Shown here: positions 6,295-12,635 of the stretch, one piece after another
Numbering within the stretch: position 1 is the stretch's first letter
Layout of the letters: each line of letters begins with the position of its first letter
Assembly: GCA_036163815.1 (NCBI GenBank)
Contig: JAYZKD010000048.1
Span: 1-35,093, forward strand
DNA length: 35,093 bases
Direction of reading: 5' to 3'
From: Pseudomonadota bacterium
GTDB lineage: Bacteria > Pseudomonadota > Alphaproteobacteria > MED-G09
The notes under the pieces: model-generated
What the model was told of the DNA's origin: nothing
Database searches by the model: none
Seen by the model: the letters and a program-made list of their open reading frames with translations, nothing else
Program-made: the position numbers and the translations under genes

Positions 6295-8742
6295 ATGTCT
6301 GAAGATAGTAAAAAAGAAAAGAAAGAAAAAAAAGAAAAGACTCTTTCTTTAAAATCCAGCTCTTTATCTTCTAAACCTTCTATAGGATCAAGGAATAGAG
6401 GTTCTAGAGTTTCTACTGTAGTGGTAGAATCTAAAAGAGGAAAAATATCTAAAACCAGAAAACCTAGTGCGCCAAAAATCAAAACTAGATCAAGTTCAAT
6501 AACCTCAAGGAAAGTTCGAGAACCAATCGACACAGAACTTACAAGTAAATTAACCGATAAAGAGAGAATAGCTAGAGAAAAAGCTCTTCAAGAAGCAGAC
6601 GATAGGAAGAAAAACAAAGAAGAAAAAATAAAAAAGACTTCAAAAACTAAGAGTAAAAGAATTGAAAAACATCAAGAAGAAGGAGAAATAATTACCGACA
6701 TACCTACTGATAACGAATTTGAGAAGGGTATTAAGAAAAAATCTTATTCAACAAAACAAACAGAAGATAAATCATCATCAACTAAAAAGAAAGAATCAAA
6801 AAAGGATGAACAAGGTAAAACAGATAAAAAATCTAGAAAAGAACCTCAAAAAAGAAGAAAAGGGAAACTAACCATTTCCGAAGCTTTGAATGAGGAAGAA
6901 AGACAAAGATCTTTGGCATCAATTAGAAGAAGACAAGAAAAGGCTAAAAAGAAAACTCTTTCACCTGATACACCTAAAGAAAAGATAGCAAGGAATGTAA
7001 TTGTACCTGAGTCGATTACTGTTCAAGAATTATCTAATAGAATGACTGAAAGAGGAGTGGATGTAATTAAATCACTAATGCAACAAGGTGTTATGGTTAA
7101 AATTAATGATTATCTTGATGCTGACACAGCTGAACTAATAGCAGAAGAGTTTGGCCATACTGTAACAAGAGTTTCTGAATCAGATGTTGAAGAAGGTTTA
7201 TCAGTCGATGAAGATACCGAGGAAAGTAAGAAAACAAGACCTCCGGTGGTTACAATAATGGGCCATGTTGACCATGGAAAAACTTCATTGTTAGATGCTA
7301 TAAGGGAAACAAGTATTGTTTCATCAGAGGCTGGTGGTATTACTCAACACATAGGCGCATACCAAATAAATTCAAATGATAATAATAAGATTACATTTAT
7401 AGACACCCCAGGCCATGCAGCATTTACCTCAATGAGAGCTAGAGGAGCGAAAGTTACAGATATTGTTGTTTTAGTCGTTGCTGCTGATGATAGTGTTATG
7501 CCGCAAACAATTGAAGCCATCAATCACTCTAAAGAAGCTGATGTACCAATTATAATAGCTATCAATAAAATTGATAAGCCTGAAGCAAATCCTACTAAAA
7601 CAAAGAATGATTTATTAGAACATGAATTGATTGTGGAAGACTTAGGGGGAGATATTCAATGTATAGAACTTTCTGCACAAACAAAAGATGGAATAGAAAA
7701 TTTAATTGAAGCTATAAATCTTCAGGCTGAAATTTTAGATTTGAGAGCAAATCCCGATAGGCAAGCAGAAGGTTTTGTTATTGAATCTAAATTAGATAAA
7801 GGTCGTGGCCCGGTAGTAACGACAATCATCCAAAAAGGAACATTAAAAAAAGGGGATATAATAATAGTGGGACAATTTTGGGGGAAAGTTAGATCATTGC
7901 TGAATGATAGAGGAGAACAAATCGATAGATGTTATCCTGGCGATCCAATTGAGGTATTGGGCTTAAATAATACACCAAACGCAGGAGATTTTTTATCTGT
8001 AGTAGAAAATGAAGCTCGAGCTAGAGAAATTTCTGATTATCGAGAAAGAAAAATCAAGAAATCTTCTCCGAATGTTCCTCAGTCAAACATTGAGCAAATG
8101 TTATCAAAAATTAAAGATGATGTTAAACAAGAATTACCTGTAATAATTAAGGCTGATGTACATGGATCCACTGAAGCAATAAAAGATGGTGTGGTTAATC
8201 TTGGGAATGAAGAAATTTCTTGTAGAGTTGTACATTCAGGTGTTGGGGCTATTTCGGAAAGTGATATTTCATTAGCAGAAACATCTAATTCTATAGTTTT
8301 TGGTTTCAATGTAAGAGCCAATAATCAGGCAAAAGATTTAGCGGAAAAATCAGATATTAATATTATTTATCACTCTATTATTTACGATTTGTTGGATGAT
8401 ATTAAAGTTATTTTAGAAGGAAAACTTGATCCTGAAATTAAAGAAACAATTATTGGTAATGCCAAAGTTCTAGAGGTATTTAAAATATCTAAAACTGGGA
8501 ATATAGCTGGATGTCTTGTCTCTGATGGAACGGTTAAAAAAGGTGAGCATGCAAGATTAATTCGAGATGGTGTAGTGATTTATGATGGAAAAATTTCTGA
8601 ACTCAAAAGATTTAAAGATGATGCAAAAGAGGTTCAATCTGGACAGGAGTGCGGATTAGCATTTGATAATAATGAAGATATTAAGGTTGATGATGTTATT
8701 GAGTGTTATGAAGTTAAAGAAATAAAGAAGAAAATTAGCTAA
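6295..8742 (+). CDS. infB: Translation initiation factor IF-2
   Basis: [20 protein letters not shown] and [11 protein letters not shown] motifs; Lys-rich N-terminal region. Confidence 0.98.
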
Positions 8743-8753
8743 ATTATATCAAA

Positions 8754-9152
8754 ATGAATGAAAATGGTTTTATCCGAAGTAATGAGGCTTCACAAAGACA
8801 AATGAGAGTTCAAGAAATTCTCAGGGCAGCTCTCAATGAAATTTTGTTCAGAGGAGAGAGTAAAAATTATATTTTGGATGAAAATATAATAACAATAACT
8901 CATGTAGATGTTTCACCTGACCTTAGAAAAGCAAAATTTTTATTTATACCTTCTGATGCAAAACAAATAGATAAGTTTACCGATGCATTTAACTCGGCAA
9001 AGAAAGTTATAAGGAAAAAAATTGCCGAAAAAGTTCAACTTAAATATGTTCCAGAAATTTCCTTCCATTTTGATGAATCGATTGATGAGATTGAGAAATT
9101 AGATAAAATTTTTTCTTCTGAAAAGGTTAAAAATGACACAAGGATTAAATGA
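8754..9152 (+). CDS. rbfA: Ribosome-binding factor A
   Basis: RQMRVQE, ITITHVDVSPDLRKA and LKYVPEISFHFD motifs; lies between infB and truB. Confidence 0.93.
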   Translation: MNENGFIRSNEASQRQMRVQEILRAALNEILFRGESKNYILDENIITITHVDVSPDLRKAKFLFIPSDAKQIDKFTDAFNSAKKVIRKKIAEKVQLKYVPEISFHFDESIDEIEKLDKIFSSEKVKNDTRIK

Positions 9153-10101
9153 AGATAATCTTTTGGGGAAAAGCCATTTTTCTGGAGGATGGATGTCTAT
9201 ATATAAACCGAAGGAAATTAGTTCGTTTTCAGCTTTAAAAAAAATCAAAAAAAAATTTTTGATAAAAAAAATTGGCCATGCAGGTACACTAGACCCACTT
9301 GCTTCAGGTGTTTTGCCAATCGCATTTGGGGCAGCTACAAAAACTATTCCTTATTTAATAGCTTCTAAGAAGAAATATAAATTTTCTATACAATGGGGAA
9401 TAAAAACTTCTACACATGATTTGGAGGGTGAAGTTATTGATAGGTCTGATTTAAGGCCTTCCAAAGAAAACTTATTAAAAGTCATAAAGGGCTTTGAAGG
9501 TGAAATTTATCAGAGGCCGCCAAGGTTTTCAGCAGTTAAAGTTAATGGAAAAAGAGCCTATCAATTAGCTAGGAATGGAGAGCATTTTTCTCTGGATATG
9601 AAAAAAGTCAAAATTTACGACATAATTCTTTCTAATTACAATAAAAACAATGACTCAGAATTTATAATTACTTGTAGTAAGGGATTTTATATTAGATCTT
9701 TAGTAAGGGATATATGTAAAAAATTAGGTGTTTTAGGCACAGTTAATATGCTGGAAAGACAAGAAGTTGGCCCTTTTTCATTAGAAAACACTTTTTCACT
9801 AGAAAATATTGAAAATTTAGTCCATATTGCGCCAGCTGGAATGGTTGGAGGAAATCTTCTTATTCCTTTAAGTGAAGTGCTGGACGACATCCCGGCGTTA
9901 CCTATAAGTGATTTAGAAGCTAAAAGATTCCAACAAGGTCAAATTATTTTGAATAATAATTTAATTAAGTTTTCTGGTTTGGGAAGTGAGGTTCTTTTAT
10001 TAAATAATAAGAAACCTATTGGACTTGCCACTGTTAGTGAAAATTCTTTCAAACCTAAGAAAGTATTTTCTGAGGAAATTTTTAATCTAAGGAGTATTTG
10101 A
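9133..10101 (+). CDS. truB: tRNA pseudouridine-55 synthase
   Basis: [31 protein letters not shown] and [13 protein letters not shown] motifs. The start codon is uncertain. Confidence 0.96.
9800..9828 (+). promoter_or_regulatory. Candidate internal sigma70 promoter within truB driving rpsO-pnp
   Basis: TAGAAA (9800-9805), 17-bp spacer, CATATT (9823-9828), then GC-rich GCGCC. It sits immediately before the structured element. Confidence 0.4.
9835..9899 (+). ncRNA. Candidate structured cis-regulatory RNA (S15-leader-like) overlapping the truB CDS
   Basis: Hairpin AGTGCTGG (9876-9883)/CCGGCGTT (9892-9899); an upstream GGAAT..ATTCC hairpin (9838-9866); seven consecutive G/C-ending codons in an AT-rich gene. 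Confidence 0.55.
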
Positions 10102-10370
10102 TGTCGATTAATTCAGATAGAAAAAGTGAAATAATAAAAGAATTTGCTATCAAGGAAGGTGACACAGGTTCACCTGAAGTGCAAGTAGCAGTTTTAACTG
10201 AAAGAATTAAGAATCTAACTGAGCACTTTAAAGATCACAATAAAGATAATCACTCAAGACAAGGATTGTTAAAATTGGTCAATCAAAGAAGAAATATTTT
10301 AGACTACATTAAATCTAAAGATGAAGCTCGTTATGAGGATTTAAGAAAAAGATTAGGTCTTAGAAGATAG
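10101..10370 (+). CDS. rpsO: 30S ribosomal protein S15
   Basis: [22 protein letters not shown] and LGLRR motifs. The ATG at 10101 overlaps the truB TGA; SD AAGGAG at 10089-10094. Confidence 0.98.
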
Positions 10371-10430
10371 TTTTATTCAGTAATATTATTAAGTTGGAAG
10401 ATCTGACAAAAGATCAATATAGGAAAATAA

Positions 10431-12635
10431 ATGTTTGATATTCAAAATGAAGTTATAGAATGGGGTGGAAAAAAATTAACCATAGAAACTGGCAGAGTGG
10501 CTAGACAAGCTCACGGATCTGTTATCGCAACTTATGGAGGTACTTCGGTATTGGCTACAGTAGTGGCAGATAGAGAAGAAAAAAAAGATTTAGACTTCTT
10601 TCCTTTAACCGTTAATTACCAAGAAAAAGCTTATGCAGCGGGAAAAATACCTGGTGGTTTTTTTAAAAGAGAAGGTAGACCTTCAGAAAAGGAAACACTA
10701 GTTTCTCGTTTAATAGATAGACCAATCAGGCCATTATTTGCAGATGGTTTTAAATGTGAAACTCAAGTTATTGCTACAGTTATTAGCTATGATACAGAAA
10801 ATGATGCAGATATTGTTGCTTTGATTGCCTGTTCTGCGGCGTTAACTCTTTCTGGGGTGCCTTTTATGGGTCCAATTGGCGCAGCAAGGGTTGGTTATAA
10901 GGATGGAGAATATATTCTTAATCCTACAAAAACAGAAATGGATAATTCGGAATTAGATTTAGTTGTTGCTGGGACTAAAGATGCAGTTCTTATGGTAGAA
11001 TCTGAAGCAAAAGAATTATCGGAAGAAATTATGCTTGGTGCGGTAACCTTTGGTCAAAAGAATTTTTCTCCAATTATAGAATCAATAATTAGTTTGGCTG
11101 AAAAGTCTGCAAAAGAACCTAGAGATTTTGAAAAGAAAGATCTTTCTGAATTAGAGAAAAGGGTTAATTCAATAATTCAGGACAAGCTAGAAAACGCATA
11201 CAAAGAAGCAGATAAACAAAAAAGAACAGAACTGATTGCAGAAATAAAAAGTGAAGTTATTGAGGAGCTCGCTTCAGATAATGTTGATGAACAAGATGAG
11301 CTTAGTGAGACTTTAATAGGATCCGCTTTCAAAAATATAGAAAAGAATATTGTTAGGAATAGTATATTAAATACTGGTGAAAGAATTGATGGGAGAGATC
11401 TTGAAACCGTAAGGCCAATACAATCTGATGTTAGTATATTACCACTAACTCATGGGTCGGCACTTTTTACAAGAGGCGAAACACAAGCTTTAGTTGTAAC
11501 TACTCTTGGAACAGGAGATGACGAAAAATTTGTTGATGGTTTGGACGAAACTTATAAAGAACAATTTATGTTACATTATAATTTTCCTCCATATTCTGTT
11601 GGAGAAACAGGACGAACAGGTTTTACTGGAAGGCGTGAAATTGGTCACGGAAAATTAGCTTGGAGAGCATTAAAGGCTGTGATGCCAGAATATGAAAAGT
11701 TTCCTTACACCATAAGGTTGGTGTCTGAAATTACCGAATCAAATGGATCTTCATCAATGGCTACTGTTTGTGGATCTTCTTTATCAATGATGGACGCAGG
11801 AATTCCGATTACTAAACCTGTTGCTGGAATAGCCATGGGCCTCATTAAAGAAGAAGAAAGGGTTGCTGTATTATCAGATATTCTTGGCGATGAGGATCAT
11901 CTTGGAGATATGGATTTTAAGGTTGCCGGTACAAATGATGGAATTACTTCATTACAAATGGATATCAAGATAACAGGAATTACTAAAGATATTATGGAAA
12001 CGGCACTTAGTCAGGCAAAAAAAGGAAGAATACATATTCTTAACGAAATGGCTAAAGCAATAGATACAGCAAGAGAAACAGTAAATGCAAATGCCCCAAG
12101 AATCGAAACCATTAATGTACCCACTGACAAGATTAGAGAGGTTATTGGAGCTGGAGGGAAAGTTATAAGAGAAATTGTAGAGGAAAGTGGAGCAAAAGTA
12201 GATATTAATGATGAAGGAATTGTAAAAATTGCCTCAAATAATGCTGAGGCAATAGAAAAGGCTCTCGAAATGATTAATTCAATTGTTGCAGAACCTGAAG
12301 TGGGGACAATTTATGAAGGAAAAGTAGTTAAAATTATGGACTTTGGTGCGTTTGTAAATTTCTTTGGAAAAAGAGATGGGCTTGTTCATATATCACAGCT
12401 TTCAAATGAAAGAGTAAACAAAGTAACGGATATGGTTAATGAGGGGGACATAGTAAAAGTTAAGTTTGTTGGTTTTGATAGAGGCAAAGTTAAACTTTCT
12501 ATGAAAAATATTAATCAAGAAACCGGGGAAGAAGAATTAAAAGCCAAAGAAGATAAATCTAAAAAGGAAGATAAACCCAAAACAGAAAAGAAAAATAAAC
12601 CAAAAAAAGATAAACCAAAAGAAGAGAAAGAATAG
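10431..12635 (+). CDS. pnp: Polynucleotide phosphorylase
   Basis: [36 protein letters not shown] and [12 protein letters not shown] motifs; KH and S1 domains. Confidence 0.98.

Follow-up and report, generated by a model that had tools for sequence, protein, structure and literature searches.

An S15-type operator and rpsO promoter predicted within the truB coding sequence of an AT-rich alphaproteobacterium

The genes for a tRNA-modifying enzyme (truB) and ribosomal protein S15 (rpsO) overlap in the alphaproteobacterial contig JAYZKD010000048.1, all 35,093 nucleotides (nt) of which are referred to here as the window. We consider it highly probable, from sequence comparison, that the last 300 nt of truB also form the promoter and 5′ leader of rpsO, in a long-linker version of the S15 autoregulatory system whose transcription start and S15 binding are predicted here rather than observed. 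The core of this putative leader is a stem-loop, H1, that is read in the truB frame as V-L-D-D-I-P-A (codons 9877-9897, GTG CTG GAC GAC ATC CCG GCG, all seven G/C-ending) and lies 222 nt before the rpsO ATG at 10101. An initial annotation made from the letters alone had proposed an RNA element about 200 nt upstream of rpsO at this place, and the landmarks it drew (the TGATG overlap, the codon run, two hairpins and a -35/-10 pair) all lie where it put them. The features that carry the argument are:

9877 to 9898, + strand: H1, a predicted stem-loop of the S15-binding type (published alignment, covariance model, covariation)
9133 to 10101, + strand: truB coding sequence, tRNA pseudouridine-55 synthase, 322 amino acids (open reading frame; Pfam)
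10101 to 10370, + strand: rpsO, ribosomal protein S15, the regulated gene and presumed regulator (Pfam Ribosomal_S15, E 3.4e-35)
10099 to 10103, + strand: TGATG, the truB stop overlapping the rpsO start codon (sequence, open reading frames)
10089 to 10094, + strand: AAGGAG, the rpsO Shine-Dalgarno (SD) sequence, within the final truB codons (invariant in 22 family sequences)

In H1, positions 9877-9883 pair with 9892-9898 around the loop ACGACAUC (9884-9891), and U9881-G9894 adjoins G9882-C9893 to give a GU/GC motif; the core 18-mer at 9879-9896 is GCTGGACGACATCCCGGC. The published alignment of the alphaproteobacterial S15 leader gives H1 as GCUGG ACGACAUC CCGGC, under the structure line <<<<<<< ________ >>>>>>> (Slinger 2014, PMC4137082, Additional file 1; statements attributed to this paper, here and below, refer to the parts of its text and alignment that we consulted). 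The window is identical to this H1 letter for letter, so that the core of this kind named in the initial annotation is correct. H1 is the most conserved element of an S15-binding leader present in most Alphaproteobacteria (PMC4137082), and it displays a GU/GC motif that mimics the S15-binding site on helix 22 of 16S rRNA (PMC4684408). The 18-mer occurs once in the 1.28-Mb genome, even with up to 3 mismatches allowed. We are similarly confident that the window element is a new member of this known family, in its long-linker form.

Membership does not depend on truB-encoded examples. A covariance model (R1) built from 18 leaders lying in truB-rpsO spacers, and containing no truB-encoded sequence, matches 9879-9896 at 22.6 bits (E 6.2e-4), which is the sole significant match on both strands of the 35-kb window; the 3′ part of R1 matches the SD/ATG region only (E 0.29). 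The nine base pairs of H1 also covary: across 92 sequences (86 distinct), 87.2% of cells are paired, compared with 78.1 +/- 0.8 after shuffling (0 of 500 shuffles as high) and 26-50% when the partner strand is slid. Seven of the nine pairs change on both sides, and where the Pro codon CCG is replaced, the substitutes are the Leu codons TTG, CTA and TTA, with pairing preserved. Because the base pairs covary, the conserved object is expected to be an RNA structure and not a DNA site.

Codon usage among relatives points the same way. We found truB in 38 of 40 related genomes searched, fetched 30 of these loci, and added 80 named alphaproteobacterial loci from a scan of genome contigs; 22 genomes with G+C at third codon positions (GC3) of 0.16-0.31 make up the family set. 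Between-genus synonymous-codon identity, calculated from a codon alignment in 138 windows along truB, is 0.993 at 9874-9894 and 0.992 at 9871-9891, the top two values against a gene mean of 0.507. The codons CTG GAC GAC ATC CCG are identical in 22 of 22 family genomes, and CTG GAC GAC ATC in 29 of the first 30 loci, including class-level relatives at 39-42% TruB identity. Synonymous sites in this stretch do not vary freely among relatives, and it is this identity that bears out the nucleotide-level constraint claimed in the initial annotation. The argument it had used, the run of G/C-ending codons itself, was dropped: runs of at least seven occur 6 times in 366,455 codons where about 4.2 are expected. 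The significance of the element, as we read it, comes from comparison with relatives and not from single-sequence statistics.

If the codons are held by an RNA that serves rpsO, their conservation should depend on where rpsO lies. We grouped loci by truB-rpsO distance with a 110-nt cut, leaving out one locus (L099) whose truB frame continues beyond the rpsO start, and counted the 12-mer CTGGACGACATC at the homologous truB codons:

rpsO within 110 nt of truB, 73 loci: exact 12-mer in 60; at most 1 mismatch in 69
rpsO more than 110 nt from truB, 17 loci: exact in 0; at most 1 mismatch in 0
rpsO not in the locus, 19 loci: exact in 1 (L100, which ends at a contig edge); at most 1 mismatch in 1

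The dual coding proposed at the outset is thus borne out by the split between close loci (69 of 73) and far loci (0 of 17). Sorted instead by the hairpin itself, 71 loci carry it inside truB, in one frame throughout and 198-310 nt before the rpsO ATG (referred to as embedded), and 18 carry it in the spacer, 51-108 nt before the ATG; the latter comprise many Rhizobiales/Hyphomicrobiales together with Marinicaulis, Parvularculaceae and Glycocaulis loci. Degenerate copies, with 4 mismatches, are found in three loci, and 18 have no rpsO within 1.5 kb of truB. Five unlinked genomes were searched whole with at most 1 mismatch allowed; each has a single copy, placed 54-76 nt ahead of rpsO, and reversed patterns gave 0 hits. 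The hairpin is always on the rpsO strand and 5′ of rpsO, also where rpsO has been relocated. In the spacer and unlinked lineages, the TruB peptide drifts (LSSLP, LADLP, LTELP and others), and LDDI is found in 1 of 36 loci, written with other codons. Since the peptide drifts there, TruB itself appears to have no need of LDDIP, and these comparisons support the view that the RNA imposes the peptide on TruB.

We think it likely, with less assurance than for the leader itself, that the S15 operator and its promoter have sat inside truB since early in alphaproteobacterial evolution and dictated TruB residues, so that what looks like a conserved protein motif in TruB would be the shadow of an RNA. 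On the same footing, TruB would have been released, and the motif would have decayed, once the hairpin moved into the spacer or rpsO moved away; the releasing lineages would include many Rhizobiales (Hyphomicrobiales), the sampled Rhodobacterales, and the Marinicaulis, Parvularculaceae and Glycocaulis loci. Flanks of the spacer copies resemble truB codons (GACC..GCTGG...CCGGC..GGCC), which suggests that these copies arose by copying of the truB end. Certain Rhizobiales (L051, with copies at 2190-2207 and 2812-2829; also L059 and L074) have two versions of the hairpin: an exact one in the spacer and a decayed one, with 2-4 mismatches (for example LGDIP, LEDLP, LDDLP), where it formerly stood in truB. 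Such pairs are consistent with duplication of the truB end as the source of the spacer copy.

The same stretch of truB appears to hold a promoter, for which the most direct guide is Caulobacter crescentus. The features predicted in the window are:

9800 to 9805, + strand: TAGAAA, -35-like hexamer of the proposed internal promoter (homology to the Caulobacter motif)
9823 to 9828, + strand: CATATT, -10-like hexamer after a 17-nt spacer, CATAGT in most relatives (synonymous identity, His codon)
9833 to 9837, + strand: predicted rpsO transcription start, about 9835 (homology to Caulobacter)

On the minus strand of the Caulobacter genome, truB (38495-39427) and rpsO (38211-38480) are separated by a 14-nt spacer. 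The rows consulted of the published start-site tables list a transcription start site (TSS) at 38746 (-), of category IP and assigned to S15 (Zhou 2015, PMC4287350, Datasets S1, S4), with signals of 319 with and 49 without tobacco acid pyrophosphatase (TAP) and with RNA-seq coverage of 275 before and 9899 after it. By these coordinates, the start sits within truB, 266 nt before the rpsO ATG. Its 25-nt sigma-70-type motif is placed at -35, begins with TGGAAA and ends with GAGCTA (PMC4287350); in the truB frame it reads L-E-T-L-E-N-L-S and is homologous to window positions 9799-9825 (L-E-N-I-E-N-L-V-H). Because the Caulobacter motif begins at -35 and its TGGAAA corresponds to TAGAAA at 9800-9805, the start in the window is predicted at 9800 + 35, or about 9835. 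A Caulobacteraceae locus (L032) offers a cross-check: counting 7 nt on from its -10-like hexamer leads to a point 263 nt short of the ATG, and 3 nt for the difference in spacer length bring the figure to 266. The same operon serves as an example of an alternative TSS in the consulted Fig. 6D legend of a second study (Schrader 2014, PMC4117421), which lists RNA/footprint values, in reads per kilobase per million, of 2035/132 for truB and 6086/5535 for rpsO. Low footprints relative to RNA on truB would follow if a large share of truB-sense RNA were rpsO leader that is not translated.

Conservation of the -10-like element runs parallel to that of H1. The third-ranked synonymous window (9811-9831, 0.923) lies over it, across TTA GTG CAT AGT GCG. 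Histidine at 9823 is written CAT in 53 of the 71 embedded loci and CAC in none. Among the GC-rich ones, 40 in number, CAT outnumbers CAC by 25 to 0 at this position, against 118:88 in the rest of the same truB genes. His occurs at this position in 1 of 36 spacer or unlinked loci, and CAT, sorted by truB-rpsO distance, in 52 of 73 close loci, 0 of 17 far loci and 2 of 19 without rpsO in the locus. On the -35 side, CT.GA at 9799-9803 is conserved, yet it is so likewise in lineages without the embedded hairpin. A scan of the region for promoters returned 9 promoter-like sites, no real excess over the 5.7 +/- 2.5 of shuffled sequence, and no terminators. An in-frame ATG (a TruB Met codon, 9841-9843) lies about 6 nt after the predicted start; sister genera have AAG, AGG or AGC there, and since the ATG is not conserved among them, a leaderless start at this codon is unlikely.

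Between the predicted start and rpsO, we annotated three further parts of the leader:

9838 to 9866, + strand: 5′ hairpin, GGAAU 9838-9842 with AUUCC 9862-9866, of tentative role (family-level covariation)
9899 to 10065, + strand: linker from H1 to the ribosome-binding region, truB coding (the long linker of the published family)
10066 to 10070, + strand: UUUUC, U-rich tract, a weak candidate for SD partner or equivalent of H2, the second helix of the published leader (pairing with AAGGAG)

The 5′ hairpin is the second hairpin drawn in the initial annotation, and it holds within the family, to which it is confined. Across the 22 family sequences, 93.6% of its cells are paired, compared with 82.0 +/- 2.1 in shuffles (0 of 500) and 46-75% when slid; U-A becomes G-C in 7 sequences and A-U becomes U-G in 3, and RNAalifold predicts the helix unaided. 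The family has a 5-codon insertion at this place, and inspection by eye, with no formal test, found no obvious counterpart in GC-rich embedded lineages. Synonymous sites in the linker vary freely. Linkers of up to 400 nt are reported for about 50% of S15-leader examples (PMC4137082), and one row of 360 nt in the published alignment shows TruB-like codons after H1 when read by eye. In every one of the 22 family sequences, AAGGAG has a potential partner in the tract at 10066-10070, with most of the pairs being U-G wobbles; all of these positions are invariant, with zero covariation, and the tract also encodes a conserved V-F of TruB. RNAalifold further pairs 9817-9833 (UUAGUGCAU..CC) with the rpsO SD (GG) and AUGU..AUUAA at 10091-10111, again invariant throughout and with zero covariation. 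Because 9817-9833 lies upstream of the predicted start at about 9835, this pairing would be possible only in read-through operon mRNA.

Put together, these elements suggest the following mechanism. A sigma-70-type promoter in truB (TAGAAA 9800-9805, CATATT 9823-9828) would start an rpsO transcript near 9835, with a leader of about 266 nt that corresponds to the 3′ part of truB, is untranslated in this RNA, and carries the 5′ hairpin (9838-9866) and H1 (9877-9898). H1, through its U-G/G-C step and the loop ACGACAUC, would mimic the S15 site in 16S rRNA helix 22. S15 made in excess of free 16S rRNA would then bind H1 and a second element near the SD at 10089-10094, blocking initiation at the AUG at 10101; in this organism H1 would have to reach the ribosome-binding site over a distance of 190 nt. 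Longer mRNAs spanning the operon, begun at promoters further upstream, would also supply S15, its translation being coupled to that of truB at TGATG. The bases of the RNA and of the promoter are truB codons as well, so they would fix both the peptide, namely H at the -10 element and V-L-D-D-I-P-A at H1, and the choice among synonymous codons.

Several observations weigh against this reading. The published work finds H2 necessary for binding (PMC4137082), and we see no convincing H2 in the window leader. A candidate helix to close the linker (GGU 9937-9939 with ACC 10053-10055, from RNAalifold) lacks support outside the family, resting on invariant Gly and Pro codons, with pairing at its free position in 39 of 70 embedded loci and 15 of 36 others. 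Folded by itself, the segment 9830-10115 shows ordinary stability (z -0.49), and its minimum-free-energy structure lacks H1, whose GCUGG pairs with CCAGC of 9832-9836. This alternative pairing (CGCCAGC, 9830-9836, with GCUGG) was itself rejected, being lost in sister genera, which read CCCGCAGG. The promoter and the start near 9835 proposed in the initial annotation are supported only through homology to the Caulobacter TSS in truB, and the hexamers as such fare less well: they match consensus at 8 of 12 positions, which is below the threshold of the consensus scan and left them unlisted. Assembled metatranscriptome contigs (17 runs listed, with shares of at most 0.14; four mapped) cover 9919-10489 (with 28 differences), 10089-10475, 10070-10220 and 10239-10510; coverage is absent from 9408-9918, which includes H1 and the predicted start, and such contigs cannot show transcript starts, so they neither support nor refute a start at about 9835. 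The embedded class is defined by the motif itself, which makes the counts of hairpin position, His codon and peptide circular, and only the grouping by truB-rpsO distance escapes this. The sequences are related to one another, so the shuffle controls overstate significance. Lastly, the alphaproteobacterial S15 leader family has no Rfam model and hence no curated threshold. Rfam 15 at gathering score gives 0 matches in the window and none in 18 related loci; at E up to 10, positions 9500-10500 return a single snoRNA match by chance, and nothing is found even in Rhizobium/Neorhizobium loci that carry the validated type. Since the family is absent from Rfam, this blank says nothing against membership.

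Among other explanations, the one nearest to ours accepts H1 as a genuine S15 site but has it act only in operon-length truB-rpsO mRNA, with no internal promoter: S15 bound in the truB frame would slow ribosomes or alter RNase cleavage, changing coupling at TGATG and possibly TruB synthesis. The TGATG overlap permits such coupling, the promoter hexamers are weak, no start site has been observed in the window's organism, and the invariant complementarity of 9817-9833 to the rpsO SD and AUG is available only in read-through mRNA. We nevertheless regard it as unlikely: at the homologous place, Caulobacter has a primary, TAP-enriched TSS with a 36-fold step in coverage, the -10-like CAT(A) is kept only in lineages with H1 in truB (52 of 73 close versus 0 of 17 far loci), and translating ribosomes would keep unfolding H1.

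That the conserved bases are instead a regulator's DNA site, an RNase signal or a small-RNA target, the S15 function not having been carried over into this reduced genome, seems very improbable. S15 binding is predicted here from sequence only, H2 was not found, and the published survey records the RNA in 1 of 58 'Rickettsiales' genomes (PMC4137082), all of which such an explanation would accommodate; it would not account for an 18-mer identical to a validated S15-binding helix, for a hairpin that keeps to the rpsO strand upstream of rpsO even where rpsO has moved, or for base-pair covariation, which points to RNA. The simplest proposal, that there is no nucleic-acid element and LDDIPA is a TruB protein motif with codons set by chance or inheritance, is barely credible. 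The seven-codon G/C run is indeed no rarer than expected (6 versus about 4.2), and Leu, Asp, Ile and Pro would be plausible in an inter-domain linker. Against it, the synonymous sites are all invariant in 22 of 22 AT-rich genomes versus 0.507 elsewhere in the gene, LDDI appears in 1 of 36 loci with the hairpin outside truB and there with other codons, and the same 18-mer stands in non-coding spacers; frozen codons, peptide drift and distance grouping already contradict it.

The leader proposed here, with its internal promoter, can be set beside four kinds of known system. The closest is the Rhizobium radiobacter leader (Rra-RNA, -108 to +10), which binds S15 at about 15 nM and confers S15-dependent repression on a reporter; mutations in its H1 stem abolish binding, a compensatory mutant partly restores it, and H2, which holds the ribosome-binding site, is also required for binding (PMC4137082). 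The window shares with it an identical H1 core and loop (GCUGG ACGACAUC CCGGC, with the GU/GC step), a position upstream of rpsO on the same strand, and an alphaproteobacterial host, and the published family alignment already includes long-linker rows of up to about 400 nt (PMC4137082). It differs in that the Rhizobium RNA is wholly intergenic, with H2 about 20 nt after H1, whereas the window H1 is 222 nt before the ATG and translated in truB; the predicted promoter likewise falls within truB, and an H2 is not apparent there. Caulobacter crescentus has the same operon order (rbfA-truB-rpsO-pnp) and the promoter motif on homologous truB codons; there the start inside truB is mapped, whereas here it is predicted.

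More distant are the S15 leaders of E. coli, Geobacillus and Thermus, in which S15 likewise represses translation of its own mRNA through rRNA mimicry. Their structures are unrelated, and the window has no Rfam match; the E. coli rpsO pseudoknot leader (Rfam S15, RF00114) lies in the truB-rpsO spacer. Finally, the E. coli infC-rpmI-rplT operon also combines a ribosomal-protein operator, there a long-range one for L20 that acts over a few hundred nt, with a promoter buried in the coding sequence of the gene before it. Its protein, fold and lineage differ, and we cite it as an analogy only, for a distant site controlling initiation.

The RNA family has been published, as has the start site in Caulobacter, and the window locus is a new member from a lineage with almost no spacer. 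The main text of PMC4137082 contains no occurrence of truB, pseudouridine or open reading frame, and the passages and table rows consulted of PMC4117421 and PMC4287350 make no connection between the start site and an S15 leader. In the literature searched, with subscription journals outside its scope, we found neither a statement that H1 and the promoter are truB codons shaping TruB nor a link between the S15 leader and the internal truB start of Caulobacter. The present reading connects these two literatures. It would mean that tiny, AT-rich marine alphaproteobacterial genomes without a truB-rpsO spacer retain S15 feedback by overlaying it on coding sequence, and it extends the family to a group nearly blank in the original survey (1 of 58 'Rickettsiales'; PMC4137082). 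In most Alphaproteobacteria, the part of the TruB C-terminal linker with the highest conservation would then owe it to rpsO and not to TruB, which bears on conservation-based inference about TruB, on methods that use synonymous rates, and on codon optimisation or recoding of truB. Searches for leaders that halt at the preceding gene miss such operators. Should the early origin be correct, it would offer a clean, datable case of a regulatory RNA constraining protein evolution across a bacterial class.

All genes in this part of the window are on the + strand: infB (6295-8742), rbfA (8754-9152), truB, rpsO and pnp (10431-12635). The genome assembly comprises 96 contigs and 1.28 Mb, with 32.5% GC and a GC3 of 0.20 (0.22 for truB); relatives at the 'same class' level and named TruB relatives are all Alphaproteobacteria, as is, by that measure, the host. 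Across the first 30 loci of relatives, the truB-rpsO spacer ranges from -23 to +59 nt. Pfam assigns TruB_N to residues 39-187 of TruB and TruB_C_2 to residues 188-233; the LDDIP residues lie C-terminal to TruB_C_2, before the C-terminal part of the protein. A second role for the last 300 nt of this gene as rpsO promoter and leader is supported by the comparisons above.

A few further observations concern individual sequences. The PolyA-selected contig 10089-10475 runs on with 15 A where the genome has A7 at 10469-10475; this tail is likely a product of oligo-dT priming or assembly and not a real 3′ end. In Peteryoungia ipomoeae (L099:1501-2811), the locus left out of the distance grouping, the truB frame extends about 270 nt beyond the rpsO start and the hairpin is 60 nt before rpsO; the long frame may reflect a missing stop, a frameshift or an alignment effect. 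Downstream of rpsO in the Caulobacteraceae metagenome-assembled genome (L032:2710-2843), a long hairpin-like sequence gives sub-threshold Rfam matches to plant microRNAs (E 4e-4, 32 bits versus a gathering score of 66) and is probably a terminator or repeat. Two contigs labelled 'Candidatus Binatia' (L036) and 'Flavobacteriaceae' (L072) have the alphaproteobacterial truB-H1-rpsO order with the exact 18-mer, and are probably mis-binned.

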